Source: Saccostrea cucullata (taxonomy: Eukaryota). From it: 64,000 nucleotides of DNA. The position numbers and the translations under genes were made by a program. The notes beneath the pieces were generated by a model, which saw nothing but the letters and a program-made list of their open reading frames with translations, did not search any database and was not told where the DNA came from. Below, piece after piece: positions 1 to 60,929 of the stretch. The stretch covers positions 124,001 through 188,000 of the forward strand of contig NW_026938566.1 of assembly GCF_032062105.1 (NCBI RefSeq), written 5' to 3'. Position 1 is the stretch's first letter. Each line of letters begins with the position of its first letter.

Positions 1-9242
<9,242 letters not shown>

Positions 9243-9287: not shown

Positions 9288-9639
9288 AGAGAACGTGCGA
9301 AGCGTAACCCGTATGTAAGAAGGTCGCCCTAATTGGAGTAAGTAACGATGTAATAGGCCTACTGCATGTGACACAGAAATATTTCCCAGCAACAATAGGC
9401 TTAATATTATATTTAAAATGAATACCTCTTATAATAAAAAGAGGGTGAGATTTAATGTATAATTGGAAAATTTTTAAAAGATGGGTTTCTCGCAAAAATA
9501 AAACAAATAATTAAAAATATTAACAAAATGCATGTTTTCGGTGTCTTAAGTATTGAATAGGATATACCATTATTTATGGCATATGAACGTCCTATTATAC
9601 GTTCTATTATAGTAATTCAAAAGTAATCACCAAATTGTT

Positions 9640-9990
9640 AAAGAATTTTTGAAAATTAGGTCAGTATGAAGGTCAAGGTCAAGGGGTAAAAAATCAAAGC
9701 ATTCTCATTACAGGTGATGCACATGTCAAATATGAAAGTTATAAGGAAAGATGGCAGTTTTGAAAAGTTTTCTCAATCTTTAAGGTCAAGTTCAAAGGGT
9801 AAAAATTCATACTGTATTTAGAAAGATATGTTGTCACAGGTGATGTATAAATACATGTGAAATATGTAAGTCATATTTTTCTTATTCAAAAGTTTTGATC
9901 AAGATTACAGTTTTCGTGATAGACAAACAGACTGACAGCGTAATGAGATTTAATGTCCCTTGCTTTTACGAAAACGGGGATCGACAAAAA
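9640..9990 (-). mobile_element. Degraded HINE-like fragment, same family as 54748-55752
   Basis: Reverse complement of 9905-9990 reads ...GGGACATTAAATCTCATT...CTGTCAGTCTGTTTGTCTATCACGAAAACT, matching 54778-54836. AAGGTCAAGGTCA satellite motifs continue to about 10760. Confidence 0.65.
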
Positions 9991-10856
9991 GATTTTTTTG
10001 TGTAATTCAAATGCCCTGTTTAACACTTACGGTGAAGGTTAAATTTTCTGAAATCAAGTTGAACTCCAAGGTCAAAATCAAGAGATCAAAAAGTAAAAGG
10101 CTACTATACAGGTATATCAGTGAATGTACAATGTAGTTGTGACATATGAAAGACCAACAGCCAACTGTACAGTTCAAAAGTTATGGCTAAGCTAGGTTAA
10201 CGTTAAAAAAAGCCGCCAAATTGTAAGGTCAAGATCAAGGACCAAAATCAAGAATACCAAGGGAGATGATTTTTATCGAGGAATATTCATCTGAAATATA
10301 CTTTTGAGCCCTAGCGCCAGGGTCCTATATATTAACGGTATTTATATGTCCCTGTTAGCGCCAACTATTTTTTTTTAAAAACTTATGGTCAGGGTAAAAA
10401 AAATTCAATAAGTCAAAAACTTTAAGTTCGAGGTTAAAAGACCAAAACTGTTGGTATCCAAAGGAATGTCTTGTTACAACTAACAGTTCAAGTACACACC
10501 TGTGAAAATTCAAACATGAAAGCCCTCGTACTATAAATTGTTCAAAAGTTATGATCAAGGTTAACTTTATAAGTATTTCTCTTGGTAAGTCAAACTCTTA
10601 AGTCAAGGTCAAAATGTTTACTTTTCATTTTTCACCCTTTGACCTTGAACCTTGAAGTTTGATCCACTTAAGCAAAAACTTTAACCTTGGTAGTATCTTT
10701 TGTACAGTTCGTGCCTAGGCTTTTTCATTTCACAGATCTATATATTCATTTCAGATCTTTCTTTGAGTCAACATATTTTTAGAGCTGAAAAGAATGTAGT
10801 TTTTCACGAATATTTGAATTAAAAATTTATTTTCGAATATTCAGTCACATGTTTAA

Positions 10857-19947: not shown

Positions 19948-20161
19948 TACGAAAGCCCACTGAGCTCATTTTGGTAGGTTAAAAAAAATAATTTTTTCGC
20001 ATTATAACGCGAAACTTTCGCGATATAACGCGTAATTTTCGCAAATAAACGTCCAGTAACTTTGCGTTTAAAGCGAAAATTATTTATTTATTAGAACTTT
20101 TCTTATTTCCGAAAAATTTATTTTTTTTAAACTACCAAAATGAGCTCAATGGGCTTTCGTA
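19948..20161. mobile_element. MITE with TACG..CGTA ends and 6-bp TSD
   Basis: TIR TACGAAAGCCCACTGAGCTCATTTTGGTAG / CTACCAAAATGAGCTCAATGGGCTTTCGTA. CATTAA on both flanks. Related orphan right ends at ~20672 and ~23453. Confidence 0.85.
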
Positions 20162-20742
20162 CATTAATAAGATATCAGAAAGTGGCATGGAATCCTCAAC
20201 TAAGAGAGGGGTTCAGTTGGCATTATTATACCTCTACTGATTTTTTCCTTTATAAAAGGGCAGTAAATGTGATTAATTTACTAGAAATCTCTGTGAATAG
20301 ACTAATCCCCGTGCGTTAGTTGAATGAGCTGGATTAGCTTCTGCTTCTGAAGCTAATTCTCCGGTTATCCGCTATCCTCTACTTTTGCATCGTTCTAATA
20401 TGTTAATGGACTTATCCCCATGCGTTAGTGCAGAAGCTAATTGCCCATCATTCGTAATCCTTTGTTTATTTTACTTTTGTATGGACATAATAAAACAGTT
20501 TAAAAGTATATCATTGAGGGAGTTAGCAAGATTTTAAAAAGGCATTATAACGCCTTTTGGAATGGAAAGGCGTAATAACGTCTTTTTTCGCGTTATTACG
20601 TCTTTTCAAAAGGCATTATAACGCCTTTTTAAAATTTTTTTCCCTCTAGATTGATCCTAATAGGCTTTCGTACTAATGTATGAATGAAGAAAAAAAATGG
20701 TTAGAAGTTGGAACCATCCACTTCACAAACACACATATACCC

Positions 20743-20745
<3 letters not shown>

Positions 20746-20809
<64 letters not shown>
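20746..20809. repeat. Poly(T) tract, 64 nt
   Basis: Uninterrupted T run, followed shortly by a C-run and (CA)n. Confidence 0.95.
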
Positions 20810-20811
<2 letters not shown>

Positions 20812-20973
20812 ATGTGAAGATTTTCAAGCAAGCCGAACTTTTTTCTCTGGTCTCTCTATCCCCCCCCCCCCCCCCACACACACACACATTTTAAGAAAGA
20901 ATACTTCGTCCCTGAAAGGCTTGGCCCATCACTGAGACCTTAGGTTAGAGGCCATTTGAAGATGACTTCATTA

Positions 20974-21483
20974 TGACGTCACAATAGTGGTTTGCTTGCG
21001 AAAGCCGTTGAAACAGACATAAAGAAACAGTAAGTAGATTTAATTCATATTGCAAATATTTTAAGAATGTTAGTACATTTGACAAATATTATTTGACGTA
21101 TGTTATGTGATATAGAAGGAAACGGACATTTATCTTGTGAATTATAACTAAATAGTTTAGAATTATTCCAATTTGCAATTTGATAACTGTAAAGCCGACG
21201 AACATTGACCCAAAGCTCACCAAAGATAAAAATCCACTATTTATAAGCCTAAAACCAACAGACCAGACGTGAAATTATAAGTAAGTAATTAAAGTTTTTA
21301 GTCAAGTAAAAGTAACATTAATTATTATCATACTTTATTGATTAAAGTGTTTTGTTTTTCCTTACGAGAACAGAGTAATTTCTAAAATATTCAGATACAT
21401 TGTTACGTCAAGCTCGATGTCTTTAGCGATGACCTATGACGTCATAATAGAGTTTTGTTTACACGAAAGTAGTGAAGATCAGA
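20974..21483 (+). promoter_or_regulatory. Two similar candidate promoter/first-exon modules with CRE palindromes
   Basis: TATGACGTCA(C/T)AATAG..GTTT..CGAAAG..TGAA..GTAAG occurs near 20972-21035 and 21436-21488. Each ends in a donor-like GTAAG upstream of the acceptor at 21537. Confidence 0.45.
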
Positions 21484-21548
21484 GTAAGCCTCTGCTGTGA
21501 ATTTTCAATCGTGTACAAGAATTCCTTTGTTCTCCAGGAACCGAAGCA

Positions 21549-24500
21549 ATGTTCGGCGATAAAAGAGAAGAACGGATAGAGAGAATTTTGACTGTGTTGG
21601 CTTGTCGATCAGCAGGTGTATCTGAAGACATGCTACCTATACCTCAAGTAAGACCAATGTTGAAAAATTTAAAAATATCTCCCCCCCCCTTTTTTCTAAA
21701 AAAAAAAAATTAAATCACCGAAAAATGAAATAAATGCCCAAAAATAATGAGTATAATCAAGGTTACTTTTTTTGAAGTTTTCTTTTAATCCACCGGAAAA
21801 TCGTAGAATAACTTGATATTTTTTTTCACTACATGTAAAGCATTTTACATTGAAAATACATCATTAATGTTATTTATAACACTTTCAAAAAAGTTATCGA
21901 TGTATTCTTTTTACAGAACTACGAGGAGATCCTGGATTTCGGTGAAGAGGCAGTCAAAGACCTAGTAAGTAGTTTACTTTTGAAATTAAAGTACAATAAT
22001 TCGTATTAGTTAAAAAAAATACCAGGACGTGATATTGTGACTTTGGCAATGAAAACCACTTTAAACTGATCCCTGCATTATAATTCCGTACGTGTTTTTT
22101 TTTCAATCAATAACAAATACATTCAAAATAGCAGGCCTATAGAACGCGGGGGGGGGGGGGGTGTCTTCCCACTCAGTTACTTTTGCTGACGTTTTAGAAT
22201 GTACATTTATGTTTTGATGCTTTTCCCTTTTAAGGTACTGTAAGATGGAACATTGACGAATTCATGCATAACTGACAAGTTTAGACTTACATTTTTTATG
22301 GTCTTTTATTTTTTTTTTTTTTTTGGGGGGGGGTTCCACTTCACTTTCCCTTTTAAAAGTTAAACCCCTTTCTGCTATTGCCACGGGCCTTTACTCCCTT
22401 AGATTTGTAAACATAACATATGCTGTTTGTTGTTATTTTTTAGAAATCCAAACAAGAAATATTGAAGTTTGATCGTAACTGGTGTGACTTAGTAGAAGAG
22501 GAGGAATTGCGACAGGTAAAATATGATTTGTTTTCTATATTATTTCTATATTTTGTTTTTAAATTATTATTGTAATATTTTACAGTTTTCAATACGTTTT
22601 CCTTTTTTTCCAATCTAGAAAAATGCGTTAACAATAATTTTCGAGAAAGAAAAAATTAGACCACAGACACAGATCTTGCAAAAAATGCTACAGGAATTGA
22701 AGGTACAGCTATTAGAAGTTATGATGCTATAACTTCAAAACTTTAGATTGAATTTTGATTATGTACAGAATTATTAGACTAGTGGTTTTTTTTTTTTTTT
22801 TAAAAACATGTTTAGTAGTTAATTTTTTATAAGTAAGACTTATTTGTTATAACTTATTTTTTTTTATTTGTTTTGAGATTTTTTGGTTAGTTCTAACTAA
22901 ATGCTTTGAGAACGATTAAATTTTTTCATGTTTTTTTCTGAATTTTAATCTGCATTCTCTCTGTGTTTTTAATGTGTTTTGACTTATTTCTTATTTGTTT
23001 TAACTTAGTTCTTATGACTAAACTTTGAATTCTTGTTATTTAAAATTTGTTATGACAAGTTTACTTCACAAAAAGTGGCGTGAAAGATGGAGACAACGTA
23101 TAGTTTCAGAAAAAAGTCCTTGAATTTATATATATTACTAACGAAAAGATAAAATAGTAGTCATGTTCTTGTCTTCAATCATTATGCAAACTGGAAGTTA
23201 CATATAAGAATTAAGTAATAGGAAATAAGTAGAAATCACAACTGTCGTTAAATTTTTGTCAATCAAAAACCACAGTTAAAATAGGACTAAACATTATTTT
23301 TTATTTAAAAAGTAAGCCAATCAACAGGTTTCAATAGGCTTCTTACATTTAGTTACCTCTAGCTACGAAACATTCACAACAAATAAGTCAAAACAAAAAA
23401 GTTATAACAAATAAGTCATAACAAGTAAGTCAATGTCCCTCCAGGGCTTCCGTACTGTTGTTTTAATGTGGTATGAAAACTAAGTAATTTGTATTTACCT
23501 CAAAAAAAAAAGAAGAAATCCATTACAATGTTCTAAGGATAAAGATATTTTATAGATACCTATAGTGTTCTTTTTGTTATTTAGAGAGAGGTGTCCAATA
23601 GAGTTCAGACAGCATTGAACAAAGAAAAACTAAAGGCAGGATGGACAGAAATACACCAAGAGATGATGGTATATTTTCTACAAGCAATATCTATTTACCT
23701 ATATAATGGTTCATTCTTTAATATATGGAAGGCTGAATTTTTGGCTTTTGGAAAACATTTGAAATACATGAAATATGTATTGTTTTGCAAACACTGATCA
23801 TATTTTTCAGGGAAAGATATCTGATAAAAGGAAAATGGATCAACAACTTGAACGAGAAAATACAAGACAGAGGTCAATTGGCTTAGAACTAAAGGTAAGT
23901 TATTGCCTAATTTTATATTTAGTCTATTTCATGTTTTGTAATTGTTAAAGAAATTAATGTAACAATGTTAAAATTAGAAAATAAGAGAGAGAGAGAGAGA
24001 GAAGGGGATACAGGAAATATGGGATTTGTTTACACAGAGTTGTTGATTTTTTTCGCACATATTTCTTGTAATATAAGTTTTTTTTTTTTTTGATTTTTAA
24101 AAAGAGTTGAATTTGATAAAATGAAATATTTTGGTACAGATAGTCTGGTCCTTGATGACTGTAAAAAGAGAAATCCAACAACTGAGAGTGGACTTAACAA
24201 GGAACATGTTGATGGGTCTGAAGGTATGTATTAAATCAAAGCTTTGTTTGAACTAAAGTCTGGATGTACTTTCCAACTATTAAATTTAATGAGATATACA
24301 AGAGAAAAAAAAACATTTACAGTAAAACTCGTTTAGTACAAACATACAGATATTGCGAATTCATTTTGTAGGTCTCAGTGACTTCATTATAACTGAGTTT
24401 TACTGTAAAAGGAGTATTAACTAAAATTTTTCAGAGATTTCTATTTTATTAATAAGATTGATATCATTTATCATTTTTTAAAAACTTAATTTGTGGTGTG

Positions 24501-27020
24501 GACTGCTTATTTTTAAATTTCCATATAACAATGTACAAATGATTAAAATATTTTTCTAGAAAGAGATGTCCATCAGACTTGAAAAAGCATTGACAAAAGA
24601 AGAACTAAAGGTGAAATGGACATCAATTCACCACGAGATGATGGTATATTTTCTTTTGTACAAGCATCATCTACTTAATTAATGGTTTATTCTTTGATGT
24701 CTTGAAGGCTGAATTCTTGGCTTTTAGAAAACACTGAAATACAGGAATGTACAATTTTGTTATGCAAATGCTGTCATATTTTTCAGGGAGTGGTATTAGA
24801 TAGAAGGAATATTCAAAAGCAAATGGATCTAGTAAGACAGAAAAAGAGGTCTATGCACTTGGAACTACTGGTGAGTTATTGCCTAATTAATATTTAAATA
24901 ATTTCTTGTTTTGTAATGTATTGAATAGATTATTGTTAAATGTAACTATGTTAAAATTAAAAAAGTTGTGTTTTTTTTTTAATATGAATTTGCTTAAACA
25001 TAATGTGTTTTTTAGGGGGGGGGAGGTAGTTCTTTGGGGGTTACTTAGAAGTTGTGTTTTTTTTTTTAATATGAATTTGCTTAAACATAATAGTGTTTTT
25101 TGTTACAGACAGTGTTGCGCATGATGGATTTAAGAAAAGAAATCGAAAAACTTAGAGAAGCAATCAGGAAGGTATGTATTTAATCACAGCTTTAAATGTA
25201 GAAATTCATGTTAATTGAACTAAAGTCTGGATGAACTTTCTGAATGTCAAATGTAATGAGATCACAAGAGGAAAAATAGGAGAGAAATTTTTTCAGTGAT
25301 TTTTTTTCTCATTATTATGATGATCAACTTTTTAAAATACTGGTAATTTCTTTGAGGTATGATCTGCTTAAAATAGGTTTATGCTCACAGCTGTTTTAAT
25401 GCAAGTGTTTTAATATCTGCATGCACATGTTCAATCAGTAATTTTTGTTTTTTTAGGAAGCTGAAGATGCTATAGTGGAAAAAAATAATGAAAAGAAATT
25501 AGACGTGATAAAATCTATTGAGAAAAATGTAAGTAATATTTTTAAAAAGTTTTATTCCAATTTTACACATCTCACTGCATTTACAAATAATATTCATGTC
25601 ATTTTGTGAAGAATTTTGATAACTTTTATTGTGTATTATGTTAAGTTAAGGCTGATTTTATGTGTTACAGGACATCTGCAATCAGGACTATCTGGATGTA
25701 CCAGAATCTGAGGAAACAGAGACTTTCATCCCAAGGAAATTGTTCCTTTTCAATGTAGAAACATTCAAAATGGATTCAAAGGTTAGAAATCTGGCTTTTT
25801 TCTTTAAAAATTCTTTTGATTATTTATATCAACTTTCAGTCTCAGGAAATCATATCATATATCATTGCAAATTTTTTTTTGATTAATTCAAAGAAATCAA
25901 AAGTTAAAACTCACACAAAATAGAAAACCCACACTTTTTTCTTGGTGATGAAAAAATAAATGGGGTTTAATCTATAAATTGTGAGTTCTCTATAAATGCA
26001 TTTGAAATAAAAATTGTTTTCACAAAATATACACATGTATTTTGTTTTCATTTCAGCATGATGATGAAGGTACACAGGAATGTAGCAGTAGTAATTCTAA
26101 GAGTGAAATGATTGAGTGCACTCCCACTGCAAATGAGGTACTTGAAATAGAAAATAATTACACCTGTATTTTGAATATTACAATTCATTCCCTTTATTAC
26201 TAATATTAATCATAGATAAGAGGTGTGTCTTCTTGACCCTGTAACAAGGTCATTCTGGTCAAAGTCAAGATGATCCTAACCCTAGCCCAGGAAAGGGTGA
26301 TCAAGTTCGTTTATTATAGAAATAAACTTAAAAGTAGAAAACAGATCACCAACACTTCGTGAGAATGCAGCAGTAAATTTATTTTGTTGACCGGTTTCGA
26401 CCTGTGATGGTCTTCATCAGAACAATTTATAGAAATGTAAAAATTTTTGTCTTAGCCATAACACTGAACTGGAGATATACTGAATTCAAGGTCTCTAACA
26501 TGGAATGTAAAATTATTGTCTTTTAACATTTTCTTCAAGAAGTAACTTTAGAGGATCATACTTGATCTGAGTTTATTGTGTCTATGATCATTGGATGCTA
26601 TTGCCTAAACATCATAAGGACAAGGCCACAGTGACATTTATGTGAAATGTGTAGGTTTCAGGTATTCTTGGATGAGCAATTGGGAGTTCATTTTTTGTTG
26701 TGACCTAGAGTTTTGACATGATGACAAGGTCAAGTGCTTCAGAGTTCAGCATTTGGGAGGAGATTTTTTAAAATGCTTTGACTTTGAATGGTCATAACTT
26801 TAAATACTTAACACAAAGATCACTCAGAACCAGATATTTTAAAGTGTCAACAATTTCCATATTTAAAGTGACTTTAGTTTCAAGAAAGTTGAATAAAATT
26901 ATTTTTTGAGAATTTTATTGATAACTTAGTTACCTTTATTTTCTTTTTCAGAGGTCCAATGAGCCAAAAAAGAAAACCCTGAAATCCAAGATCCAGAAAT
27001 TCTTCCGATTGAAGTCATAA
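21549..27020 (+). CDS. Uncharacterised ~372-aa modular, charged alpha-helical (coiled-coil-like) protein
   Basis: Fourteen coding exons, all AG/GT-bounded, phase 0 and stop-free: 21549-21647, 21917-21964, 22444-22515, 22619-22702, 23585-23668, 23811-23894, 24140-24223, 24560-24643, 24787-24870, 25109-25171, 25457-25528, 25671-25781, 26057-26137, 26952-27020 (TAA). AATAAA at ~27064. Begins MFGDKREERIERILTVLACRSAG, ends KKTLKSKIQKFFRLKS. Confidence 0.85.
24318..24407. mobile_element. Tiny pogo/Tigger-like MITE
   Basis: TACAGTAAAACTC / GAGTTTTACTGTA: TA flanks and CAGT..ACTG termini. Confidence 0.7.
26384..26425 (-). ncRNA. Minimal type I hammerhead ribozyme motif (Penelope-like element type)
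   Basis: Minus strand reads TTGTT-CTGATGA-A-GACC-atcaca-GGTC-GAAA-CCGG-TC-AACAA. All core nucleotides present, 5-bp stem I, 4-bp stem II, palindromic mini stem III, GUC cleavage triplet. Confidence 0.8.
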
Positions 27021-28133
27021 AGAGATATTGGGACATTAGCAAATGGATATCGTCTTTAACATCAATAAAATATTTAATGGAAAATGTGTCATACAAACTG
27101 TTTATCTCGCGTTTAAACCATCAATTAAATTAACGTATTAAATGAAATTTCTTGTTTTTCTTTTGATTTTTTTATGTCATAATTTCGGTTAGATGTAACA
27201 TATATCTTCAAAAATATTTAAGAAAAAAATAAAGACTGCAAGAAAAGGCCCAAGGGCCTCAACAGTTGCCTGAGTATAACAACAATTAAGAGGAGCCACA
27301 GTATGAAAGTATGAAATTTATAAACTGACAGATGAAGCTTTGATGCTCAAAAGCAAAAGAAATAGGATGATCAGGACCAATGAAATATCTAGACAAGTAT
27401 TAAAGTCATGTCAATTTAACTTCCTGTTCATTGGACATTTGATGAAAAATGTACTAGTGGGGAAGAGATTCAGTAATAATATTCATACTTTTGTATGTAT
27501 CAAATGAATGCAAAATAATTTTCAAATGCCTATTAAGACATCATCATTCCTTGAATTTATTTATATCTTCTGCATCGTAAAATTATTCAATGAATAATAT
27601 GAATTCATAATAATTTTTAAATGACTATAACGCATTTTGTATTCTACATATTTAATATATATTTTTCAAAATTATAATTTTTTTTATATGAAATGCTGAC
27701 CATAAATGCATGGATTTTTCATTTTAGAGAGAAAAACCAAAAGTATTTAATCAGTGATATCTTTAATTAAATAAAAGTATAATTTAAAACATTTCTTAAA
27801 TAAACAGTTGCTAGCTTTGTGTCATCTTTCTGTTTTTAATTGTAAGATATCTTTATAAATCGATTAAAGAGAACAAAAATTGAATTAATGTGCGCATTCA
27901 ATATGTGATTGCACACAAAAGAGAATTAAACTAAACAGATATCTTTGAATATACATGTATTGAACTATTCGGGCTTTGAACATGGGAAATAGTAAATTGG
28001 AATAGAAATAAATGTTAGAGTTCACAGTAAAATGGACTCAACAGGTGATGGAATAGACTGTTTAAAAATATTAAATAATATCAATAATTACAAGTTTTCA
28101 CGTTTTCTCACGGCCATAACTAAATAGTCTAAA

Positions 28134-31100
28134 TCACTGGTTAACTAATAAACCAAAGAAAACTATTGTCACTGTTGGAGAAATAATCATATAAAAGATG
28201 AAAAAGAGACGATCCAAAACTCGCGCCAGAGTTCGCCATTCCTGTTGCCGCTCCTCGCCGTCCATGACGTCATGGTCGGTTTCTGTCACGTGACTCCCGT
28301 CATATACAGACAGGGATTCTATATTTTCCACTTTAACGTCGTCTTTATTTTTATCCTGAAACAGAAAAGTACTTCAAGTCAAGAACTTTGAAACATACAA
28401 AAATTAATCATGAGACATACTAGATCCATCTTTGGATACCCGATGATATACTAAATAGACCGCTTAATTACAATAAAATATCCTCTTTCCTATTCCAAGA
28501 AAACAAATATTTTTAAAATCATATAATATTGAAATTAGAAGTGCATGCAAGCACATCCTGTTTCTTACTGATGCTGGCTTTTTGTCCACAATGCCAACTT
28601 TTGTTGTTGGACAGAGCACAAATCTGAGTTTTCCAAGAAACAACCTTCTGACCCATGAGGGTACCCGATTTGTCGATTCCTCTCGGAAATGTAAATATAA
28701 TACCCAGACCGCAATTGTGCAAGAGAGACACACGATAACCATACACACCGAAAAGTAGACACCTGTAAAACATAACATTTAAAGTATGTTTTTTATCTTA
28801 AAGAAAGATCAATGATTAAAATACTAGAAGTACGAACAGGTTTTATAAATCCAATGATTTTTTTTTTTTTAATTTGACCCACCTATAATTGGAAAAGTTT
28901 CCGCGGATGCTGGTAACTTATCAGAAACAAGAAGCAGAAACACAGAAAGTGACAATAAAACAGTCACTTCAAGTGAAACTTTTTCTCCAGAGTCAGCTGG
29001 AAGTATGAACCCCAAGGCGGCAAGAGCAAGCACAAGTGTGCAAGGAAATATAATTGTCAACACGTAGAATTTCGGTTTCCGCTTCATTGTCAACGTAAAC
29101 GTAATATCAGGGTAAGGTTCCGGACAACAGCCGTAGTAGGCCACGTTACGCTGGCTCAAGATGCTGACGACTGACCACTCATTGCTTTCGACAAACGAAG
29201 ATAAATCTCCTGAAAATTGAAAATAACAATGCAAGGTTTTTGGATGTTATGAATGCATTTACATGTACTGGGTCTTTAAGCTTAAAATTTGGGTTAATAA
29301 ATAAATCATGAATGTAGTGTTTCAAATGTTTTTTTAGTTTGGTTTTTATTTCATGGTTTTAACAAATTTATTACACCATTTTGCCAGTCTCGATATGCAC
29401 CTACTTCGCCATAATTTTGAAACTTGAAAAAAATTAATTTTTAAAAACAGCAATTCGTCCTTCTTATTAAAAAATACACGGTATATTAAACTCTTAAAAG
29501 AGAAGAGTGTTGGACCTGTAGATCTTTTTGCAAGAAGGTCAAGTTCCTGGCCGTGGTGAGTCCAGGACCCCAGCTTGATGGTACATTTCTGTGTGTCATA
29601 AGGGAAGTAGGTGACGTCAACAGAACACGTGATCTCCACCACTGTAGGAAAGTTGAAATACGCAGATCCGTCAGAATAAACCGAAATTCTGTAAAAGGCC
29701 CGGCCTGGCATGTCCTCACCCTTAGTAACACTGATTAGAGAAAATCAGTATTAATGCAAAGAAATAAACGATAATCATATTCTATAAACAAATGCTATAT
29801 AAAAAGTCTTAAAAAACTAAAGAACATATGAAGTTTAAGGGAGTACAACTGACGATTTTGAATCCACCGCACAATATATAAAAGTTCTATATGGATGTGT
29901 TTTAGAGTTTTAATTATTCTGAAATCAGGACCTGTCAGTTCCATACTTCATTAAAGTTTTATAAATATCCCTACCTCTCAAACAAAGTGATATCAGGAGT
30001 CCAGATTTTACTTGAGGGGACAGTTAAGGAACTAAAGCCTCCGTATGATGAAGGAGTCCAGGTAAGAGAACAGTCTTTCCAACTCTGAGGAAAAAATGAT
30101 CACTTTACTTTAGTATGATCATACTACGCCTAAAAGAATGTTAAAGTTTTGTATATGACATACAGGGATAAAGAATGGCAACCATGCTTAAATTCACTGA
30201 AACAGTACAAATCGGGAACAGAACAAACATGGACCTAAAAAACATCAGACATGGGATTAGGTGTCAGGGAGGAGATATAAACTCTAAAATCCTTGTATTG
30301 GCCAATGATCTGAGCAAAAATTCTTGCTTATTAATAAAATTATCTAAACAAAATGCTTGCTTATAAATCAAATTATCGGAATAAAAAGTTAGTTTTGGCC
30401 TGCTTAAAAGGGATTTTAAATAAAGATTTTTCTCTACTCAAAATGTTCCCCTATTGTGACCTACCACTACCTATCACGGGACCATAATTTAATCAAAATA
30501 CTAAATTTGCACTTTCAGAGAATGCTTGTACAAGAAGGTGCTGCTCATTAACCCAATGATGTTTCGTAATGCGCAGTTGAATTGTTTCATTAATTTTCGA
30601 TATGAATTCGTAAATGGAAATTAAAGTTAAAGCAATATGAGCTGCATTTTTGAAAATTTTATTTTGCTGTTAAAATGTGTTGTTATGATATTTTTGTATG
30701 TAACTTAAACCTTTATGATCAATTAAACTAAAATAAAGCAGAAAAAAAACTTCTACATACAATCCAATATACAGTTTTATATAAGAAATCTTTATTGTAC
30801 AGGACGACAATAATGCAATTTTGATTCAGTCGAAGCTCATAAATAGTTCTTGCATCGCAAACACTGTAAAAAAATAACTAGTTAAAGTCACGAAGAAAAC
30901 TAGTAAATTTACTGTCCATACAATCACTACCTTAAAAGTAGTTTTACCAGATTATGGTATATTTACTAGATAAGATTAGTAAATTTAGAATTGATATAAG
31001 TAACTTTCACTAGGTATCTAAGTATCTATACGACCCCCGCTCCACAACTCACTATCTTAACCAGTAAAATGAAAGTTTACTAATCACGACCAACGCTTTA

Positions 31101-34053
31101 CGAGGCACACTAGTTAAATTCACTAGGTTTTTCTTTCAGTGAATATGAACAAAAGAAGTTTATCAATATTATTATTTTGTGTCTTTTGAATAGTTATTTA
31201 TAATTTTGCAACAAAAAATTCTTACATCAAAGTTGCAGCTCATATTGCTTTAACAGATGACAGACGGCCGGACAAGTTGATCAGTAAAAACTAAATGATC
31301 CTTTGGCTCTGGAGAGCGAAAAGAAACAAAATATATTCCTTTTTAAAATTTATTTTATCTTCTTCCCATCCAAAACAAAGTTAAGCTACGCAGCAAATGA
31401 ATCCCTGCATACTAGGGCAAAATGTATCTAGTCTCTGTTCATGACATTAAAAAAAAAGTTTCCAGTAACGCTTTTACTATGATCAAATCTTAATAAATTG
31501 GTGGAGAATCCACATTAATGAGATCCAAACTCATATTATTTTCCATGTTGGCTATATTAATTAGATAGAAAGTCGCTCGTACATCTATATGAGGAAACTT
31601 GCTAGATTTAAAGTAAAATGTCTCCATGTTCTTTTATTGGCATAACGTTACATACAACAAGAAAAAGATACTTCACTGCTCACAAAATCGTAAGGCCCGA
31701 GTACAGGTCTTTGCAGCACTCCAACGACAAGTGGCGTCGTCTAAATACTAGTGTTTAGTGGAAAATGATCTCGAAGGAACGTTAAACAAACAAATAAACA
31801 TAGGTTTTATTTCATTTTAGATATACGGATAGATGACTGAAAAAAATTCTTTGAATTAGGATGCATGTATGTAAAGAAAGATACGCTTTAAATTACATTT
31901 CCTATTTCACTTGCTGTTGAACATGTATATTTAAATTTACCTGACGTAGCCACATCTTTAACGTCAGTGTTTGTTCTCTTTCATTCTGCAAGATGCATTT
32001 AAAAAAAAAATATTAAAACATATCATAAAAGAGTGTATCAAATAGTGACTTTAAACTGTTGTGAATATTATGTCATAATAATTAGGTCAATAAATATGAC
32101 ACCATAGTTTGATAAATTTTCTTACGGATGAATAAGTTAATTTGATGCTTCGAGTTTCATTTAGATAATTACACGCAAAGTTTACATGACCTTCATTTTA
32201 TACAATATATAATAATGACGAACCATTTGAAATTAACACCTGACAGTGATCATCAATGTTAATAATTAATTAGTCACACCAAAAATTTAACATAAATAGG
32301 CACAATACAGGTCATTTGTGCATGCACTGTTAAATAGACCTTGTCCTACTCATTGAGTAATGCTATATCAGGCTTAAAATTGACAATGCCTATCATTCCG
32401 TCAGTCAAAGCTAAGACAAATAGGCTATATGACACCAATTTCATTAAAGTCCAACACACTTTAATTGCAAAAATGCAGTAAAGATTTGAGACCATGAAAA
32501 TTTTAAAGGTATATGTTAAATTTTCTTCGAGATAACTTCGTTCTCACACGTGCAATACCATTACCAATTAAGATATTGTGAAAATGAGGAAATTTAATGC
32601 TTATTCAATGTGCAACTAAATTTTTGTAAGATTAATTTATATTAAGAATACTTTCATATTTGGGTTATCACTGAAAAAACTTCAGAGAAAGTTGAGGAGT
32701 ACAGTATCTGTTATCTCTGAATATTTCCATTTCTATTTTTTTTTTCTCTGTGATAACTCTTTGAAAGTTTAGGGAGTTTATTTCTTGATAATTCTGCAGG
32801 AATGTCAATTAGGCACGTCGATAGGTCAGCAGCTAAGGAGGCCTAATACGCATGCAAATCTCGTGCGCATCTGTCTCTGTGTCTGACGCTAAGGAGGCCA
32901 AATATGCATGTAAATCTCGTGCGGCTGCCTTTGTGTTTGACGTCAGTGTGCGAGGACTATTGAAATTGGCATGGAAGTCCTCGTGCAATTTCAATCTATA
33001 AGTCTACATTTTTAATGTCTAAGTCTACAATTTTATTTCACAATGAAATGAAAATATAAGGAATCACTGTCTAGTTATGACAGTATGCCAGGGACATCAA
33101 CAATAGTGGGAAACATGGGATAATTTTAGCATAACGGGCTTCGCCCGTTATGCAAATTATCCCATGTTTCCCACCATTGTTGATGCCCTGGCATACTCTC
33201 AAAACTAGACAGTGATTCCTTAAATAATATTTAACACTATACTCTTATTTATTACATTGAATAAGTAAAATGAGTATATAGGTATTCATTATTTTCACTT
33301 TTTATACACTATTGTCAAATCACTGAAGTTATAAGTAACCACATCTAACAATAAATCACAGATATCTGAAAGTTAATATTTACCAGGGCAATAATTTCTC
33401 GGAGGGCAATATCAAGAGTGACTGTGACGTTGTCTGCATTATGACATCGGGGTAGGATTTCACTGGTGTAGTTGGAGAAGAGGTCTTTGTAAAGAATCTG
33501 GTCTGATGTAGCCAGTGTAGTCTCTATTACAAAATAAAGAAAACCAAGGAATGATAATCTATTCCAAAATTCAATCTCCTTTTAACTAATTTTTCAAAAG
33601 TGAAAAAAATATTAAAAATTTTCGAAATCTTCGGTAGAAATAGACTAGTTAGCTGAAATTTTGCTAAGGATTTTTCATGTTGATTTCTTTTCCATCGAGA
33701 CTTTTTGTTCAACCAAAGTTTTTCATCAGAAGTACATGTACATAGGCCATTGGTTAAACATTCTTAATTCTATTTTTTCCATCATGATAAATGTATAAAA
33801 AAGTTTATCTCATAAGCCACAAAGATACTAGCATATAGATTCAAATGGAAATGAAATACATAAAGACTGGTCCTTTTTGATTGCTTTACATTATTAAAAA
33901 AAACACATGAAAATACTTTTATGATGCTAATTGCCTAAAGATACCAATGAACACTTTTTTTCGGGTTTTTATATAAAAGATAATATAATGATGTTTTAGT
34001 TTCTTACCTGTTAGAAACGAAATTAAAACCAAAGTATTCAGAAACTTATCCAT
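28134..34053 (-). CDS. Nicotinic acetylcholine receptor alpha-type subunit (alpha9/10-like), paralog A, 432 aa
   Basis: Exons 34008-34053, 33384-33523, 31941-31985, 29975-30084, 29516-29730, 28883-29209, 28569-28762, 28134-28355 (1299 nt, open). Signal peptide, Cys-loop CSVDVTYFPYDTQKC, loop C YYGCCPEPY, M2 GEKVSLEVTVLLSLSVFLLL, pre-M4 EWRTLARVLDRLFF. Confidence 0.95.
30862..31141. mobile_element. CACTG-ended MITE (EnSpm/CACTA-like)
   Basis: CACTGTAAAAAAATAACTAGT / CACTAGGTTTTTCTTTCAGTG imperfect TIRs, internal ACTAGT repeats, AA flanks. Confidence 0.6.
31665..31800 (+). mobile_element. Probable SINE 3' fragment
   Basis: Ends ...AGTGGAAAATGATCTCGAAGGAACGTTAAACAAACAAATAAAC with a simple-repeat tail. 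Similar tail at 36495-36550. Family assignment is from recall of bivalve SINEs. Confidence 0.4.
32832..32945. repeat. 56-bp tandem duplication carrying octamer and CRE motifs
   Basis: GCTAAGGAGGCC..GCATG(C/T)AAATCTCGTGCG at 32832 and 32888. ATGCAAAT at 32852-32859, TGACGTCA at 32938-32945. Confidence 0.8.
33057..33222. mobile_element. Foldback (hairpin) MITE
   Basis: ~80-bp imperfect arms TAAGGAATCACTGTCTAGTT... / ...AACTAGACAGTGATTCCTTA, loop TTC. Confidence 0.85.
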
Positions 34054-35252: not shown

Positions 35253-36313
35253 TACGAGGGTTGTCCCGTAAAATCGTGGACAAAGCGTTTTTCTCGAAAA
35301 GTAATAGCGCACTGAGCTGAAAATTTCAGTAAATGTTTATTTATCATATTTAAGTGCATGATAATTTTTTTGATATAATATAGGCAAAAATAAAGATTTT
35401 ATTATGCTTGAATGTGCACGAGGTATTTCCTACGGCGCACGGTCAAAAAACCAAGGGTTTAATAAAGAATACACAAGTCTGAATTCAAAATAAAAGTTTT
35501 AAATACATAAGATTAGGATTAAATTACACTACTTCAATTCCACAATCAATTTTGTAGTCTTTTTAAAAATCTTAAGGCATTTGCTTAATTTTTGGCAGTT
35601 TCTCGAGCATTCGAAATGGGAAAGTGGTAAACACAACACACGAAAAATGGCGTTTTATGACGTTACGGCGCACCGGAGAACAGTTCAGTTTTATTTCTCT
35701 GTTGTAATGACACCTTTAGAGACTTGAAATGACCATAGAAGAAAAAAGATTATAAAAATATCACCGTATCTTAAGTATACAAATGAAATAGGAGTTTTAT
35801 ATAACACAGTTTTTTAACATGATCAAGTCCCCGGGGAGTACAAAACATACGGACAAACTCCTGATGTAATAGCAAAGGACGCTGTCACAGTAGACCGCCG
35901 ATATGAGATTTTCTATTAGTTGAATGATGGTGGGAATATTGTCCGTAACTTACTAATAAATCTTCAGAAGATCGCACGAGGATGCCAACTGGTTCTTCGG
36001 CTGTTTATGGAGACTAAAGAATGTGTATCAATGAAATTCCTAAATTTAAGTCGGACTCATCCAACTTCATTTTAAGTAAAGATAAAACGTGACGCTGTTT
36101 TAGACACTTTGACGTTATAATTCATGCGCCGTAAGGTGATACAATACATGGCATAAAATCTCATAATTTGTTTATTTATGCATATATTTATTTGAAATTT
36201 GCCAAGTATATTACTAAAATATGTACCAAATAATAGTGAAAATTTCAGAACGCTGTTATGTTTATTTTTCACACTAGACAACTTGTCCACGATTTTACGG
36301 GACAACCCTCGTA
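35253..36313. mobile_element. Tc1/mariner non-autonomous element between the nAChR paralogs
   Basis: Perfect 31-bp inverted ends including TA: TACGAGGGTTGTCCCGTAAAATCGTGGACAA / TTGTCCACGATTTTACGGGACAACCCTCGTA. Confidence 0.9.
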
Positions 36314-37901: not shown

Positions 37902-40900
37902 CTACTGATTTACCAAAATACCAAAGAAAACTATTGTTACTATGAGAGAAATAACCAGGTAAAAGATAAAAAACAGACGATCCAAAACGCGCGCTAAATT
38001 TCGCCATTCCTCTAGTATCTGTTCTGAGTTGGTACTTTTATTAGTTTTTGTCTCTTGACAACTACTTTCTATTGAAAAAGAATGCACACTTTCTACCTCA
38101 ACATCACATTTGTTTACACCCTGAAATAATAAAAATAAGAGATATGTCTTTAAAGAAATACATATAAAATGAACATTTATTTTAGAAAGCATGCATTTGT
38201 AACATTAAAAAGTTACAGACCTTGCTTATTACAGTTTCTGGCTTCTCCGAAGCGACTTTGGTCGTGTCACACAGCACAAATCGTAATTTTCTAAGAAAAA
38301 TATTCTTGACTGATGAAGGCAATGGGCATGTCGATTCTCCACGGAAATGTAAATACAAGACACAGACGGCAAATGTACATGAGAGACAGACGATAACCAT
38401 ACACACAGAAAAGTATATCCCTGTAAAATAAAAGTTATCGTAATATCATTATTGACCCAATAACATTATGTAATTAGAAAAGTAACACTAAAATAGTAAA
38501 ATTGAAATTTTAGGTATCAGTAAAGACCCTTCTTCGCACATGCACACACAAGCAATATCCCTCACCAATGATTGGAAAAGTTTCTGCGGATGCTGGTAAC
38601 TTATCAGAAACAAGCAGAAGAAACACAGATAGTGACAGTAAAACAGTCACTTCAAGTGAAACTTTTTCTCCAGAGTCAGCTGGAATTATAAATCCAAGGG
38701 CGGCTAAAGCAACCACAAGAGTACATGGGAATATGATTGTCAGCACATAGAACCTGGGCTTTCTCTTCATGTGAAGGTAAAACGTCACATCCGGGAAAGG
38801 TTCTGGGCAGCATCCATAGTATACCACGTGACGTTCGCTCCGGAAGCTGACAACCTCCCACTCATTGCTCTTAACAAAAGAAGACAAATCTCCTACCAAA
38901 AAAAAATTTAAATACAGTATTGTCATGTTCTTAATTTTTCATCTATCAAATTCAAAATTTAGAACATGACACTAGCCATTTGAGCAGATTTGAAAAATTG
39001 TCATAATTGTACCATCATTACAACATGCAAATATTTATTTGCATATAATATATCACTGTAAATTTCTTTTTGTTTATGGTTGCAAAAGTATAACTGGATG
39101 AAAGAGTTTCACTTAAAGTTAAATATTGATCTTTAATTAAAAAGCGTCCTTTTTAATAATAATAATAATTAAAAAAATTAAAATCAATGACAATGACAAA
39201 CCGGTAGATCTTCTGGCCACTAGATCAACCTCTTGCCCATTATAAGTCCAGGACCCTAGTGTTATGGTGCATTTTTGTGTGTCGTACGGGAAATATGTGA
39301 CATCAACTGAACACGACATCTCCACAACTGTCGGAAAGTTGAAGTAGGCTGATCCGTCGGAATACACCGTGATCCGGTAAAATCCACGACCTGGCAAATT
39401 CTCACCCTCATGCGCACTGAGAAACAAATATAACTTAGGTGAAATGGAACATAAATTTTTAGAAAAAAATCTGTTTCCTTGCACCTATTAATCCGAATTA
39501 TGCAGCCGAGTGTTATTCAGTGTACAACAATGCTCTCATTGTCCCATTATTAATTTACAAAATGAATTTAAAGCCTAGATAATTCTTACACTATAAAACA
39601 TTAAAATGCACCTCTCAAAAAGAGTGATATCCGGTGTCCAAAGTTTGCTCATGGACACCGAAAAGGAAGCGAGTCCCCCGTACGTGGCAGACGTCCAGGC
39701 CAGATAGCAGTCTTTCCAGCTCTTGGTAAAATAAAAGTCTTAGAATGATTGACAAGAACTTAGCATACAGATATTTAATTGCATTGTCTCTCTTAAGTTG
39801 GGAAAGCTTTCTTTTACAAAAAAGATTGTCAACATTCCAGTAGTAAAATTTTACAGTACATGTATTGATGCTGAAACAAAATTCGAGTTGTGTTTAAACT
39901 GTTTCCCCAATATCTTCTTTATTCAACAATCTGAGTGATTTTGTGCCAAATCAATTGCAACTTTTTTTTTTCCTTTCAAAGTTACGATCAATGCAAAAAA
40001 TTACACCTCTGAAACTTGTGACCTTGTCCTTAATAAACCCCTACTTTATAGCTACATAATCTGTACACATCCTCTACTTAGAAAGGGTCCTTTTATGAAA
40101 GATGAGCTTCCAATGTTATGGCCAGAAAAAGTTAATTTGAATACAATTTTATAAAAATTGACCAGTTGCTCTATGGAAGTAGGCAGTAGCTAGTAATATG
40201 AAGGAATAAGCAGACCTTCAAATGGTGGACCCACTCTTACCAATAAATAAATAAATCAAACATAAAAATAAATCAATTAACAAAGAGTCAAAGGAATAAA
40301 AAGAGAAAAAATGAATGTACTAGTAATCTACATTTTTCTTTTATCATTGATAAAATTATTTTATTGAATACAACATGTATACCTGACGTATCCACATCTT
40401 TAACTTCAACGTTTGTTCTCTTTCATTCTAAAAAAGTTTAAATACATAATTAAGTAAAAAGAACTTGCAAGAACTAATGATTTTCATAAATTGCAAGCAT
40501 TTGTTAATTAGATTTAAAAAAAATAGCTGTAAACTGTCAATTTAATTGACATGTCGTTATTTTTTTGGTCGCTTTGAAGTGATATACGAATATTGTTACA
40601 TTTAATCGGAATATCAAACAATGGTTATGTAAACTTCCTCTGCGATAGTAATTTCTTGTACAATTAAGAACCTTTGAGTATGTGTGGATATTTTGCTCTA
40701 TTTAGAAATCAATGTAGAACCTTGAGAATAAACAGCTGCGATTGACATCGGTTAATATTTATTTTCTGTAGGGAGCTGTGGTGAAATAATACCCATGTTC
40801 CTTCGTGCATTCTTTTTTCAAGATTTCTCATACAGAATTATCTTAAGTGCTTTAATATCTATTTTAATTTCTTCGCTGCCTTTTGAATTGGTACTGGTAT

Positions 40901-42357
40901 TCAATAAAGCAATAAAACAAAAACTAAGATTGATTTACATTTTTTTATCATTTATGTTTTAAGGTAGCAGACTATACCCCGGTATTTCAGTGACATCCTA
41001 ACGACAATTTCACGAACTTTCGATCCCTGATTTCCATGTATAAAGTAAAATACTTTCGATGATATTGGTATAAAGTATTATTATAGCCCCAACAATCTGA
41101 GAAACTATAAACTCAATTTTTCAGTGATTATATATATATAATTTTTATTTATTCACCAATTAAGGGCCCTCTGGGGGCATATACAATTAAGAAACAAACA
41201 ATATAATCATGATTATAACAATGCAAACTTCACTTGATCCTCACGTGTAAACGTTCTCAGATTTGAACTACTGATATACAGGGTAGTTCACAATGAAATA
41301 TAAGCATTACATATAATTATAATAATACAATATGAAGAAAATAAAAATAATAATAAAATACCAAGCTCCTTTATACTGCAATGACCAGGTGGATAATAGC
41401 AAACAAGTACATGTAATCATATTATTATTAATCATATAATTAAAAAAAGTATATATATTTTGTTGGCCTGGTAGCATAAGATACCAAGGGACAATGCCTA
41501 TTGAGCAGTCTGGAAAAAAAAAATGAAAAACCAGGTTGCTCGGTCTTGGACCTCAAGCAACCAAGACAGCATGTAGGATGAAAACTTAATTTGTTGGCCT
41601 GATCATAATATATTATTATCATATTTACCAGGGCAATAATGCAGGAGGGCAATATCTAAACTGACAACTCAATCTTTCAGTGATTATAACAATATAATAT
41701 TAATGATATTTACCAGGGCAATAATTTCTCGAAGGGCAACATCTAGGCTGACGGTGATATTGGTGGTATGATTGCATCTGGGCAGAATTTCTGTGGTGTA
41801 GTTGGATAACAGGCTGCTGTAGAGATTCTGCTCTGTGGCAGAAGGTTTAGTCCCTGTTGGAGAAAAAATGCAGGATAACCACTATATAACCACTGTATGA
41901 TCTGATGATGAAATAGATCATTTTTAGAAGAGGTCTATCTCTATGCAAAATCAACTACATCTGTAATATGATTTAGGTAATACCCTACTGTCTGTCAAAG
42001 AAAAGTAATTTGATTTGGCAGTAGTCAACATAGTATGGTTTCGCTATCAAATTAAAATTGTTGTAATACCATCTAAATTAAAAAAGCCTGTGATCAAAAC
42101 TATGTATTACTTTAAAGACAAGTAAAATGGGAAAAAAAGTCAATATAAGAAATAAACAAAGAAGATGACATGATGCATACAATGACAACACAATTGTTTC
42201 TTCAGCTCATTGCAATAATACCAGACAAACAACAATGGATGCAATGTTATCTACTTCCTATACTTATCTAATGAGAAGAAAATTCAAATTTATATTTTAA
42301 AGAAATCTTACCTTTCAACGTTGAAATTAAAATTAAGAAAGAAATAACTTTTTCCAT
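37902..42357 (-). CDS. Nicotinic acetylcholine receptor alpha-type subunit (alpha9/10-like), paralog B, 433 aa
   Basis: Exons 42312-42357, 41714-41853, 40383-40427, 39612-39721, 39202-39416, 38566-38892, 38221-38420, 37902-38120 (1302 nt, open). First six exon lengths identical to paralog A. Cys-loop and M2 identical to A; loop C is YYGCCPEPF. Confidence 0.95.
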
Positions 42358-43534
42358 TTGAGTCAAAAATTCTAATTTCTCTACAACTTTCTTATAAATT
42401 CCGCTGCTGTTGAAAGCGAATACCGTGAATTTTAAATATGCAAGACATTTGCAGTTATTTGTTATTGACCAACCAAGCCCTTTTCTTGTATTTGTTGCCA
42501 ATCAGCCATATTAAGGGTTAATTATCGGGTTCAGATCAATAACGTGTAAGCAATATAAATTCTGTTGGAAAATGGGTTGAAAATGTTGCCTTTGAGCCTG
42601 CAGTGTTGGGATAACATCAAGTTTATTTTTAAATTAGTTTCCTTCGGACCTTTATTTAATGAATTTAAAATACGTTTTACTAAGAAAATTGCTTATCCAC
42701 ATTGTATTTCATTGCTGGTTTTGTGTGTAAAGATGTTTTTTTTTATTTAGTCTATTTTACCTTTCTCTCTCAGCCCTATCAAGATCACATTTTTTTCTCG
42801 AGGATGGTCAAATATGTTTTTGTACACTATCAGATAAAGGAAAGATATTTGTTAATCCTGTCCTAAACCTACACATTATTTAAATGAAATATCAAGAACA
42901 TGTTCTTAAAATAATTTTAACCATATACGATCTAAGCTTGAATATTGCGGTGATATGGTCCTCCATACCATCCCTTTCTTCCGCTCCCTCACCCCTGTCT
43001 GTATAGCTGATCATACTTTTATTGTTATTATTGAGAAAAAAGAAGATGTGTTTGTGAAACACTTTGCCCCAGATGGTAACAGAATTCTAGGGTGGAACGT
43101 GGTATACACTTACCCTTGACAACGCAATAGTTATGGGCTAGGTTAAAGTTGACAACAGACAGACAAGAACAAAAACTATCTACCACCCGGATTTTTCGAT
43201 CCAGGAGCATAAAAATAAATAACAATAAATGTATAAAAACTGAAGTTATTTGTCTTTGAGACATAAAGTCTTTGTAAATAAAACATACTAAAGTAAGTGG
43301 CCTCCATATAAATACAAAAGGGTAAGGTTTCAGAGAAAATATCAAGGTATAAATGTAGTAACCTTACTTCTGATCTTTTCAAAGACCGCCCTAAAGAATC
43401 ACCAATATGGACAAAATATGGATATCAAATAGAAGATTCTTGTATTGTCCATAATATGCAACACAAAGACATTTGCTGATCAAATACATGAATGAATAGA
43501 ATAGAAAATATACAGTATATATTATATGCCATAA

Positions 43535-44435
43535 GGCCAGATAGAATTAATCTTTAGATTCTCATCCTAATTTGCTAAAATATTGGGGCGGGTGGGCGGA
43601 TTTTATTTTTTATTTTTTATAATTGTTAAATTGGAAGTATCAACAAAACATGGACTCTCGTAAACATTTTTTGTTATGTTAATGCCAATATGAATAGATT
43701 TTATTCCTTTCATATTCTTTTAAATATTTAAAGAAGCTTCTTGCTTTAAAAAATTAAATATTTATTGTTAATTAAGAAATTATCAAGTACACAAATACGG
43801 CACACGCCAATCAAAATGGGGTGGGGATACCGTTAAATTGTGTATGCATGTCAGACTTCCTCAAATACCTTTTAGTTTTACCAACCTATGTTTTCTGTAA
43901 AATATCACATACTGGAAAACCTAGGCCTGAACAGTTTTAAGATTTAACATTTTCTTAGCATTCTTTAAAGTCTGCCTACGATGTTTTATTATTTTTTTTT
44001 TCAAAGAAAAATCACACACAGTTGGAGATCGTTTAAAACTTGACCAGGTGTTATTTTCCCTGTCTATTTTTCCTTAGTTAAAATCTCTCTAATTTGCTCA
44101 AGCCATTAACATGATTAATACTATCTAGACGTGTTGATGCTATTTTTTCTTCTCTACCTTTTTTACACTGACATTTTATCTTTTCATTACATATTTAAAC
44201 TGCTTTTATTGCCGATTTTTCGCCATTCTTCACATGGCTCTTTTGCTATAAATAGCGACACGCGACTTTTAATACAGACGAGAGATAACTCTTAAACTTT
44301 GACCAAAATTCTTGCTGAATAAAAATACATGGAAAATACTTTTAACACCCAAAAATCGAAATAAAAAACACCGGGATGGGACATTTTGAGAGGGGCGGGC
44401 GGGGATGAGAATCTAAAGATTAATTTTATCTGGCC
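43535..44435. mobile_element. Non-autonomous DNA transposon with TAA TSD (Zator- or PIF/Harbinger-like)
   Basis: TIR GGCCAGATAGAATTAATCTTTAGATTCTCATCC / GGATGAGAATCTAAAGATTAATTTTATCTGGCC, TAA on both flanks, GGGCGGG subterminal motifs. Confidence 0.85.
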
Positions 44436-52319: not shown

Positions 52320-53386
52320 TACGAGGGTTGATCCAAAAGTTCGTGGAATTTCTTTCTACAATTTTATCTTGATCTTATGAAAGCAAACAACAGGCATATT
52401 TATAATACAGAGTCATGATGCAACAATATTGGAAATTTTCACCACTTTCCAATCACCAATAATGTCACCCGAGCTTTCTGAAAATGGATTGTTGTGAAAC
52501 ACGGGAGAGACTTCGACGTTACGTCAAGTTAAATTTATCGCGTCGTTATAGTAGCATCTCACCTTAATATCAAAATTCGAATATGTAATTCTACAAAATG
52601 CTGACCTTTTTAAAAAAAATATTTTTCTTAAGAAAAGCCTGGTTATCCTTTCACACCAACTTGCTCTGTATCTTCATTTTTCACTCAATTTCAAAATACT
52701 CCCATCTTTCCACATGATGTTCCAATTTCAGTAGCAATGTCAAGAACAGTACGTCAGTCGACAACGTCCATTAACGCTTTTAATATGAGTAAGTGGTATA
52801 AACACTTAAAACAGTGCCTCCGAAAAGCGGTCACACCTTTAATCAACATTCATGGAAGTTCTTTTTTTTAAATTTCATATGCCACTGAAAAACAGTAACT
52901 AAATGCGTTTTTCCTAAACCAATGTCAGTAATATACGTGTTTACGATATTGTTATCCCAGGATTTTCACAAAACATATGAATTGACCGAAATTTGACGTT
53001 GTCTAACAACTCAAAGATGAACAATGAATCATCAACTAATAAACTTAATATCCAGTAAAATCAGTAAAACTTTTACACAAAGGTTTATAAAAAGTCAAGT
53101 AATCGTAATAATATTTTTGTTTTATTTACCACATAGGTCGGTTTTATTCTCACTTCACATATTAAGAATTAAAATGATCAATTAACGCGTTAATGTTTCC
53201 CCCGCATTTCCAAACAACTGTTTCTATGGCAACTGCTATGGAGTTACTATAATAAATATTTAAAATGCTCTTTTATTCAAAATATTCAACAAGTGTCTAT
53301 ATTCTCATTTAAAACTTTCAACAAATTTCACTTAAAAATAAATAAAATATGAAGAAATTCCACGTTCTTGTGGAACAACACTCGTA
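52320..53386 (-). mobile_element. Decayed mariner-type element
   Basis: Imperfect TIRs TACGAGGGTTGATCCAAAAGTTCGTGGAATTTCTT / AAGAAATTCCACGTTCTTGTGGAACAACACTCGTA. Minus-strand remnant VTVFQWHMKF near 52871-52899 resembles the mariner N-terminal HTH. Confidence 0.75.
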
Positions 53387-60802: not shown

Positions 60803-60929
60803 TTAAATGCTAACAATTGCCGATGGAGGACTGAAAATTAAAGGGCCTGGTGAGGACATTACATCAGAGTTGGAAAAGCTGAGTAGCAATTTGGAAGGCT
60901 CAGAAAAGACTTACCGGTACACAATGTAC

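Follow-up and report, generated by a model that had tools for sequence, protein, structure and literature searches.

Hammerhead ribozymes in Penelope-like elements

Single intronic hammerheads are known from amniotes, where the ultraconserved motifs HH9 and HH10 of Rfam are canonical in architecture and conserved across species. In metazoan Penelope-like elements (PLEs), minimal type I hammerheads (min-HHRs) are found in the pLTRs (Cervera & de la Pena 2014, PMC4209133; Lunse, Weinberg & Breaker, RNA Biol 14:1499, via PMC6765202). As listed in the pertinent passages of PMC4209133, their hallmarks are an extra base between positions 9 and 10.1, a G10.1-C11.1 pair, a palindromic 15.2-16.2 segment and a helix I of 4-5 bp. 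Such motifs number about 2,000 in Schistosoma, 4,000 in coelacanth and 9,000 in Xenopus, and most are single copies, described in the same passages as "probably related to truncated PLEs" (PMC4209133). As far as that account goes, a single motif shows no cleavage and dimers show low cleavage (PMC4209133).

Regarding insertion, the account of PAc from Anolis in PMC11167929 describes AT-rich cleavage with a preference for ATT. The RT start sites of PAc are located 111-118 nt into the ORF and the hammerhead cut site at +26, so that synthesis starts downstream of the hammerhead, and uncleaved RNA is the dominant insertion substrate (PMC11167929). The PAc hammerhead cleaved once the element's protein was added, and no RNA-seq reads ended at its cut site (PMC11167929). 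Penelope copies of the rotifer Adineta vaga are described with 8-, 9- and 10-bp target-site duplications (TSDs) and as solo pLTRs (PMC3846280, in its section on these copies). Penelope repeats are also stated to be expanded in Saccostrea transcriptomes (PMC6201952, in the relevant passage).

Genomic context of the motif

The window, i.e., the whole 64-kb stretch of Saccostrea cucullata DNA that was analyzed, contains one minimal hammerhead motif, located on the minus strand inside the last intron of a gene that is convergent to an nAChR gene (Table 1).

Table 1. Features of the hammerhead locus (window coordinates; motif parts are read on the minus strand).
Feature	Position	Strand	Basis or remark
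Last intron of host gene, 814 nt, GT-AG	26138..26951	+	Spliced X1 contig and exon mapping
Last coding exon of host gene, stop 27018-27020	26952..27020	+	Exon mapping
Last coding exon region of nAChR alpha-10-like gene, stop 28134-28136	28134..28373	-	Spliced X1 record 6
103-nt insert, putative 5'-truncated 3' end (pLTR) of a Penelope-like element	26324..26426	-	Edges of 10-bp repeat and X1 record 4
Target-site-like duplication, copy 1, 10 bp	26314..26323	+	Identical to 26427-26436
Target-site-like duplication, copy 2, 10 bp	26427..26436	+	10/10 match
60-nt 3' tail after stem I, first letters AAUAAA (26383-26378)	26324..26383	-	Common to X1 record 4
Minimal type I hammerhead motif	26384..26425	-	Letters as read and structure-aware descriptor
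Stem I, 5 bp: 5' UUGUU / 3' AACAA	26425-26421 / 26388-26384	-	
Core CUGAUGA, then extra A	26420-26414, 26413	-	
Stem II, 4 bp: GACC, 6-nt loop, GGUC	26412-26409, 26408-26403, 26402-26399	-	
GAAA	26398-26395	-	
Self-complementary hexamer ACCGGU in the place of stem III	26390..26395	-	Predicted dimer interface
GUC cleavage site, C17 and cut	26389; 26389/26388	-	Predicted cut

The initial annotation had placed the motif antisense in the last intron of an orphan gene. The position is borne out by a splice joint in run X1, the intron being absent from one X1 contig and from the proteins P0058/P0059. The gene called an orphan there is annotated, if uncharacterized: one host exon is a 100% match to two isoforms of the "uncharacterized protein LOC134250673" of Saccostrea cucullata, whose exons map along 21549-27017 with the same last intron. 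Pfam gave one sub-threshold match on the host protein, likely a coiled-coil. The host gene also harbors a duplicated exon pair, at 23586-23896 and 24560-24870 on the plus strand (57% and about 30% identical in protein), and isoform X2 of LOC134250673 and one X1 contig lack the first of these pairs.

Run X1 is listed as "DNA?" and is here taken as RNA-derived because its contigs over 20000-30000 skip 10 introns, namely nine GT-AG introns of the host gene and one minus-strand nAChR intron. These contigs are uninformative on strand, ends and level, and gaps in their cover of the intron and the nAChR 3' region are not counted as evidence.

The best named match of the convergent nAChR gene is an alpha-10-like subunit from Mercenaria (62%). 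The motif is antisense to the host gene and sense to any nAChR read-through, 1709 nt past the nAChR stop on the same strand, in agreement with the distance of about 1.7 kb first given. Two tandem nAChR genes can be found on the minus strand (28134-33581 and 37902-41868), about 9.7 kb apart, with exons 74-85% identical. Over 435 nt, the X1 contig of the nAChR has 23 letter differences and six gaps relative to the window and may come from a divergent allele, a paralogue or a related species.

Architecture and specificity of the hammerhead motif

Letter by letter on the minus strand, the fold initially described (stems, core, GAAA, palindrome and GUC) can be read as stated. The catalytic core positions C3-U4-G5-A6-N7-G8-A9, G12-A13-A14-A15.1 and U16.1-H17 are all present, without substitution. 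Helix I, with 5 bp, closes the motif within the 4-6 bp of the PLE type, helix II has 4 bp with G10.1-C11.1, the A at 26413 is the PLE-type extra base between 9 and 10.1, and ACCGGU provides the minimal palindromic helix III. All the PLE min-hammerhead hallmarks given in the pertinent part of PMC4209133 are thus present, and on all testable sequence features the motif belongs with this class. The word "intact" is apt for the consensus motif but not for a catalytically competent monomer, as judged from the predicted folds discussed below.

A structure-aware type I descriptor finds one match on both strands of the window; its yield from 200 dinucleotide-shuffled versions (12.8 Mb, searched on both strands) is three loose matches and no strict one. 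The loose core-only pattern is at chance level, with 17 matches against 12.1 ± 8.2 expected, so the signal is carried by the stems. Among prokaryotic control loci with the core only, which are chance matches of the loose pattern (114 of 120 loci were re-matched by script), none of the 114 has both a stem II of at least 4 bp and a stem I of at least 3 bp. The isolated hammerhead fold is not unusually stable (z = -0.59). Scanning with Rfam hammerhead models, suggested early on as a check, leaves the motif undetected: no match reaches the gathering score over the 64-kb window, and none of the 12 matches obtained for 25400-27400 at E ≤ 10 is a hammerhead. The case shows that Rfam is blind to the PLE min-hammerhead class.

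The motif is solitary within the window, as had been noted: blastn, a search for its 3' tail with three mismatches and a covariance model all leave a second copy absent, the next best window match of the model scoring 10.3 bits (E 0.69). The score of 53 bits for the motif itself is circular, because the training set was gathered with the window's own core, and the model is used only for the absence of a second copy. The reported lack of an RT ORF also stands, tblastn with 12 proteins from PLE loci giving nothing in the window at E ≤ 1.

A 103-nt insert with defined edges

The motif is framed by a 10-bp direct repeat, the sole one of at least 9 bp to do so. Between the two repeats, the insert opens a single base ahead of stem I and closes 65 nt beyond C17. 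When an insert-length segment was slid across the window with a tolerance of ±5 nt, a 10-bp framing repeat was found at 10 of 5786 other positions, eight of which lie in a GA-rich array at 47.5-48 kb. Among the matches listed, X1 record 4 (1070 nt) matches 26326-26427 alone, with 12 differing letters and no gaps (88% identical), and its 751 nt upstream and 217 nt downstream are unlike the window. These homology limits agree with the edges set by the 10-bp repeat within 1-2 nt, which identifies the segment as a discrete, mobile insert belonging to a repeated family. As expected of a repeat with defined ends, one second copy with other flanks has the same edges, and the duplication, identical at 10/10 bp, is target-site-like and within the 8-10 bp reported for short TSDs. 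The perfect duplication and the intact core suggest a young insertion, although the sole other copy seen is 88% identical.

The junction of duplication and insert makes an AATAAA at 26321-26326 on the host's sense strand in the last intron, which may be a matter of chance, as another is found near 26892. Other repeats in the window comprise two 147-bp satellite families (3430-4573, 54832-55684 and 9573-10772, the second family being also present in decayed form near 9.6-10.8 kb) and MITE-like elements with terminal inverted repeats (35253-36313, 52320-53386, 43531-44439, 60404-60809, 19948-20161 and 33054-33225), the first two of which have similar ends in common. The idea that the insert is part of a 147-bp satellite or a MITE remnant is unsupported: neither the intron sequence with the insert removed nor two satellite profiles, used as nhmmer queries, show similarity at this intron.

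Metagenome loci with the same core

The exact core pattern can be found in 22 metagenome loci and has no match in the viral contigs and prokaryotic genomes searched. Pfam matches to RVT_1 and/or GIY-YIG are present in five of these loci, in a scan that took 30 of the 55 listed ORFs and left out opposite-strand and many short ORFs; L003 has both domains above cut-off in a single 959-aa frame. By tblastn among the loci, 14 of the 22 have RT/EN-ORF homology, three share accessory ORFs only and five have none, with 13 loci coming from two assemblies with related prefixes and the RT/EN linkage holding in three of six source groups. A telomerase-like RT plus GIY-YIG ORF, the mark of a PLE family, did not turn up in the tblastn search of the window, and the 14 loci with such sequence are without the window's 3' tail. 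This tail is absent from all 22 loci, and essentially only the ribozyme core is held in common; they are therefore look-alike families and not the parent of the window family.

Stem I was left free by the search pattern and could be aligned for covariation in the window and 13 of the 22 loci. All five pairs change on both sides, and 81% of cells are paired. The covariation score is reached by none of 500 shuffles and lies above all slid controls, and partner swaps reach 1/20000, while measures that count pairs or pair types are not significant (146/500 and 105/500). At least 3 bp can pair in seven of 11 distinct stem types, the other four falling under 3 bp. Between related copies, the 3' homology ends 68-88 nt after C17 in five of 14 pairwise comparisons with sequence to spare (65 nt in the window insert); in the remaining comparisons it continued into ORFs or met contig ends. 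In the TSD search around the 22 metagenome motifs, none proved to be framed by a 10-bp repeat as tightly as the window motif, and four loci have candidate repeats of 9-10 bp.

Some of these loci, namely L003 (430-1236, 2469, 2596-3387 and 2826-5702, plus strand), L012 (51, 38-1273, 886-3702 and 4162-5079, plus strand), L016, L017, L022 and L008, form a hammerhead-bearing PLE group. In this group, an upstream ORF overlaps the RT-GIY-YIG ORF in another frame, and a further ORF, coding for C2H2 zinc fingers (Pfam zf-C2H2, E 6e-8 to 2e-6), is located between the endonuclease stop and the hammerhead. The layout is seen in two independent assembly groups, and the literature search met no description of it. 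In L022, tandem hammerheads (2419-2466 and 2537-2584, plus strand) are located 118 nt apart, the upstream one being substituted in stem II and in the palindrome; such a partial-tandem layout would permit a dimer in cis.

Origin of the insert

The insert is, with high probability, a heavily 5'-truncated solo end of a Penelope-like pLTR with its target-site duplication, in an AT-rich intron site and likely now doing nothing. The PLE origin of the window family, the insertion mechanism, the inactivity and the neutrality are points that we infer. That the motif might be a recent Penelope remnant had already been proposed, and this proposal has gained ground through the target-site-like duplication of 10 bp, the matching edges of the second copy, the occurrence of the same core beside RT/GIY-YIG ORFs and a 3' end that follows the cut site at 65 nt. 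Compared with a full active PLE, in which an ORF lies between tandem pLTRs, there is here a single 103-nt piece; the lack of an RT/EN ORF in the window is what a stub would show.

Mechanistically, a PLE GIY-YIG endonuclease would have made staggered nicks 10 nt apart in the AT-rich intron. The RT start would lie downstream of the hammerhead cut, at a distance of about 65 nt, and synthesis from there would have crossed the cut site, which implies an uncleaved template. It would have come to a halt a single base beyond the 5' strand of stem I, and the 10-bp duplication would be the product of repair. The copy would then persist antisense to the host pre-mRNA, and a minus-strand transcript would still be without a second copy for stem III. 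Because the host pre-mRNA carries only the complement of the ribozyme, the insert should be harmless.

The same mechanism and inactivity could apply to a different parent, i.e., a truncated non-autonomous hammerhead repeat, either a non-LTR retrozyme or a SINE-like pLTR derivative, for whose mobility PLE proteins would have acted in trans. We regard this parentage as unlikely, although the window family is tied to no RT and solo copies of such repeats are common, with 42-44% overlapping introns in Xenopus (bioRxiv 10.64898/2026.07.22.740005, in the part on solo copies). Retrozymes are also known from mussels, with TSDs of more than 4 bp, but the animal retrozymes described in the pertinent part of the same source consist of tandemly repeated units about 220-390 bp long, and those of corals carry canonical rather than minimal hammerheads (PMC7229834). 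A retrozyme is built of tandem units a few hundred bp long that all carry a type I hammerhead; the locus has neither a tandem repeat nor a second motif, and X1 record 4, with its long flanks unlike the window, holds one piece among the matches listed, although the parent could still be a retrozyme.

Can the motif cut?

The initial annotation had also suggested that the ribozyme could cut nAChR read-through transcripts entering the convergent gene. Pol II often continues beyond a poly(A) site; past that of the nAChR gene it would transcribe the motif, and a monomer assisted by protein, or a dimer formed in trans with family RNA, would limit antisense transcription into the host gene. Such a working or co-opted cutter is very improbable. 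Orientation and distance fit, the catalytic core is free of substitutions and another family copy is present in the RNA-derived run X1, but this copy differs at stem I position 26385, and a young insertion explains the intact core and the perfect duplication equally well. The stretch from the nAChR stop to the motif contains nine AAUAAA/AUUAAA hexamers, which speak against read-through; several would be expected by chance in DNA of 30% GC, and given the habit of Pol II just mentioned, nascent transcription over the motif is possible. Since the motif is intronic, any read-through RNA that reached it would have passed the last exon of the host gene beforehand.

The predicted folds, whose energies omit tertiary contacts, proteins and co-transcriptional folding, weigh further against cutting. 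Stem III of the monomer would have at most one A-U pair, with a predicted population of about 5e-8, and stem I is predicted to form to 16-33% when the insert is folded and to 0-10% when four wider contexts are. In the predicted MFE structure of the insert, the 3' tail pairs back on the 3' half of the ribozyme (GAAAC-CGGUC segment) and would sequester the cut site. The active double-hammerhead dimer, predicted at -18.7 kcal/mol and thus only 2 kcal/mol above the dimer MFE of -20.7, is more favorable to the idea, but there is no cis partner in 64 kb, and single PLE min-hammerheads are inactive and even dimers weak in the account of PMC4209133. With a near-absent monomer fold, a stem I formed at 0-33%, no partner in the window and the poly(A) hexamers upstream, the suggested cutting of read-through RNA is left without support.

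A conditional form of the idea can also be considered. Solo PLE hammerheads might act as conditional cutters, the read-through RNA pairing in trans with family transcripts through the palindrome and swapped stem I strands, or being chaperoned by the PLE protein, and being cut at 26389/26388, for which we see only a slim chance. If true, expression of the transposon family would render read-through and antisense transcripts with such dispersed stubs open to cleavage, and only if solo copies were cleavable in trans would the insert bear on the role of PLE hammerheads. Among the papers listed in the literature search, none deals with solo PLE hammerheads as read-through cutters or with this Saccostrea repeat family.

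Finally, that the motif arose by chance in AT-rich intron DNA has next to no probability: the silence of the Rfam models, the loose core pattern at chance level and the unremarkable fold could be cited for it, but the shuffles without strict matches and the core-only controls without both stems count against it, and the second copy and flanking duplication rule it out.

Comparison with known systems

Like the amniote HH9 and HH10, the window motif is a single intronic hammerhead; unlike them, it is minimal, antisense to its host, located in a transposon-like insert with a perfect duplication and without any Rfam match. With animal non-LTR retrozymes, as described in the corresponding parts of PMC7229834 and bioRxiv 10.64898/2026.07.22.740005, it has in common a non-coding nature, a type I hammerhead and an occurrence as dispersed solo copies, including in introns, whereas theirs are tandem units of a few hundred bp and the window has one piece of 103 nt, whose motif is minimal.

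The likeness to PLE min-HHRs is closer: type I topology, a 5-bp helix I, an extra base before helix II, G10.1-C11.1, a palindromic stand-in for helix III and solo occurrence. Helix II has 4 bp in the window versus 7-8 bp in the Schistosoma families, and the 6-nt palindromic variant of helix III resembles the forms of Drosophila, rotifers and shrimp.

In comparison with solo or 5'-truncated PLE pLTRs, as far as they are described in the relevant sections of PMC3846280 and PMC11167929, the window piece is unlike in its length of only 103 nt and in having no inverted pLTR, tandem partner or ORF. It is alike in a TSD within the 8-10 bp range, an uncleaved template as implied by its extent, an AT-rich target that starts with ATT on the element strand and a 3' end a few tens of nt past the hammerhead. 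As the truncated PLE end that it very probably is, the insert would be an ordinary stub of little consequence. It is nevertheless a tidy specimen, a near-minimal insertion running from the 5' edge of the ribozyme across the cut site, in accordance with the in vitro finding, in the part of PMC11167929 on insertion substrates, that a PLE RT copies uncleaved RNA.
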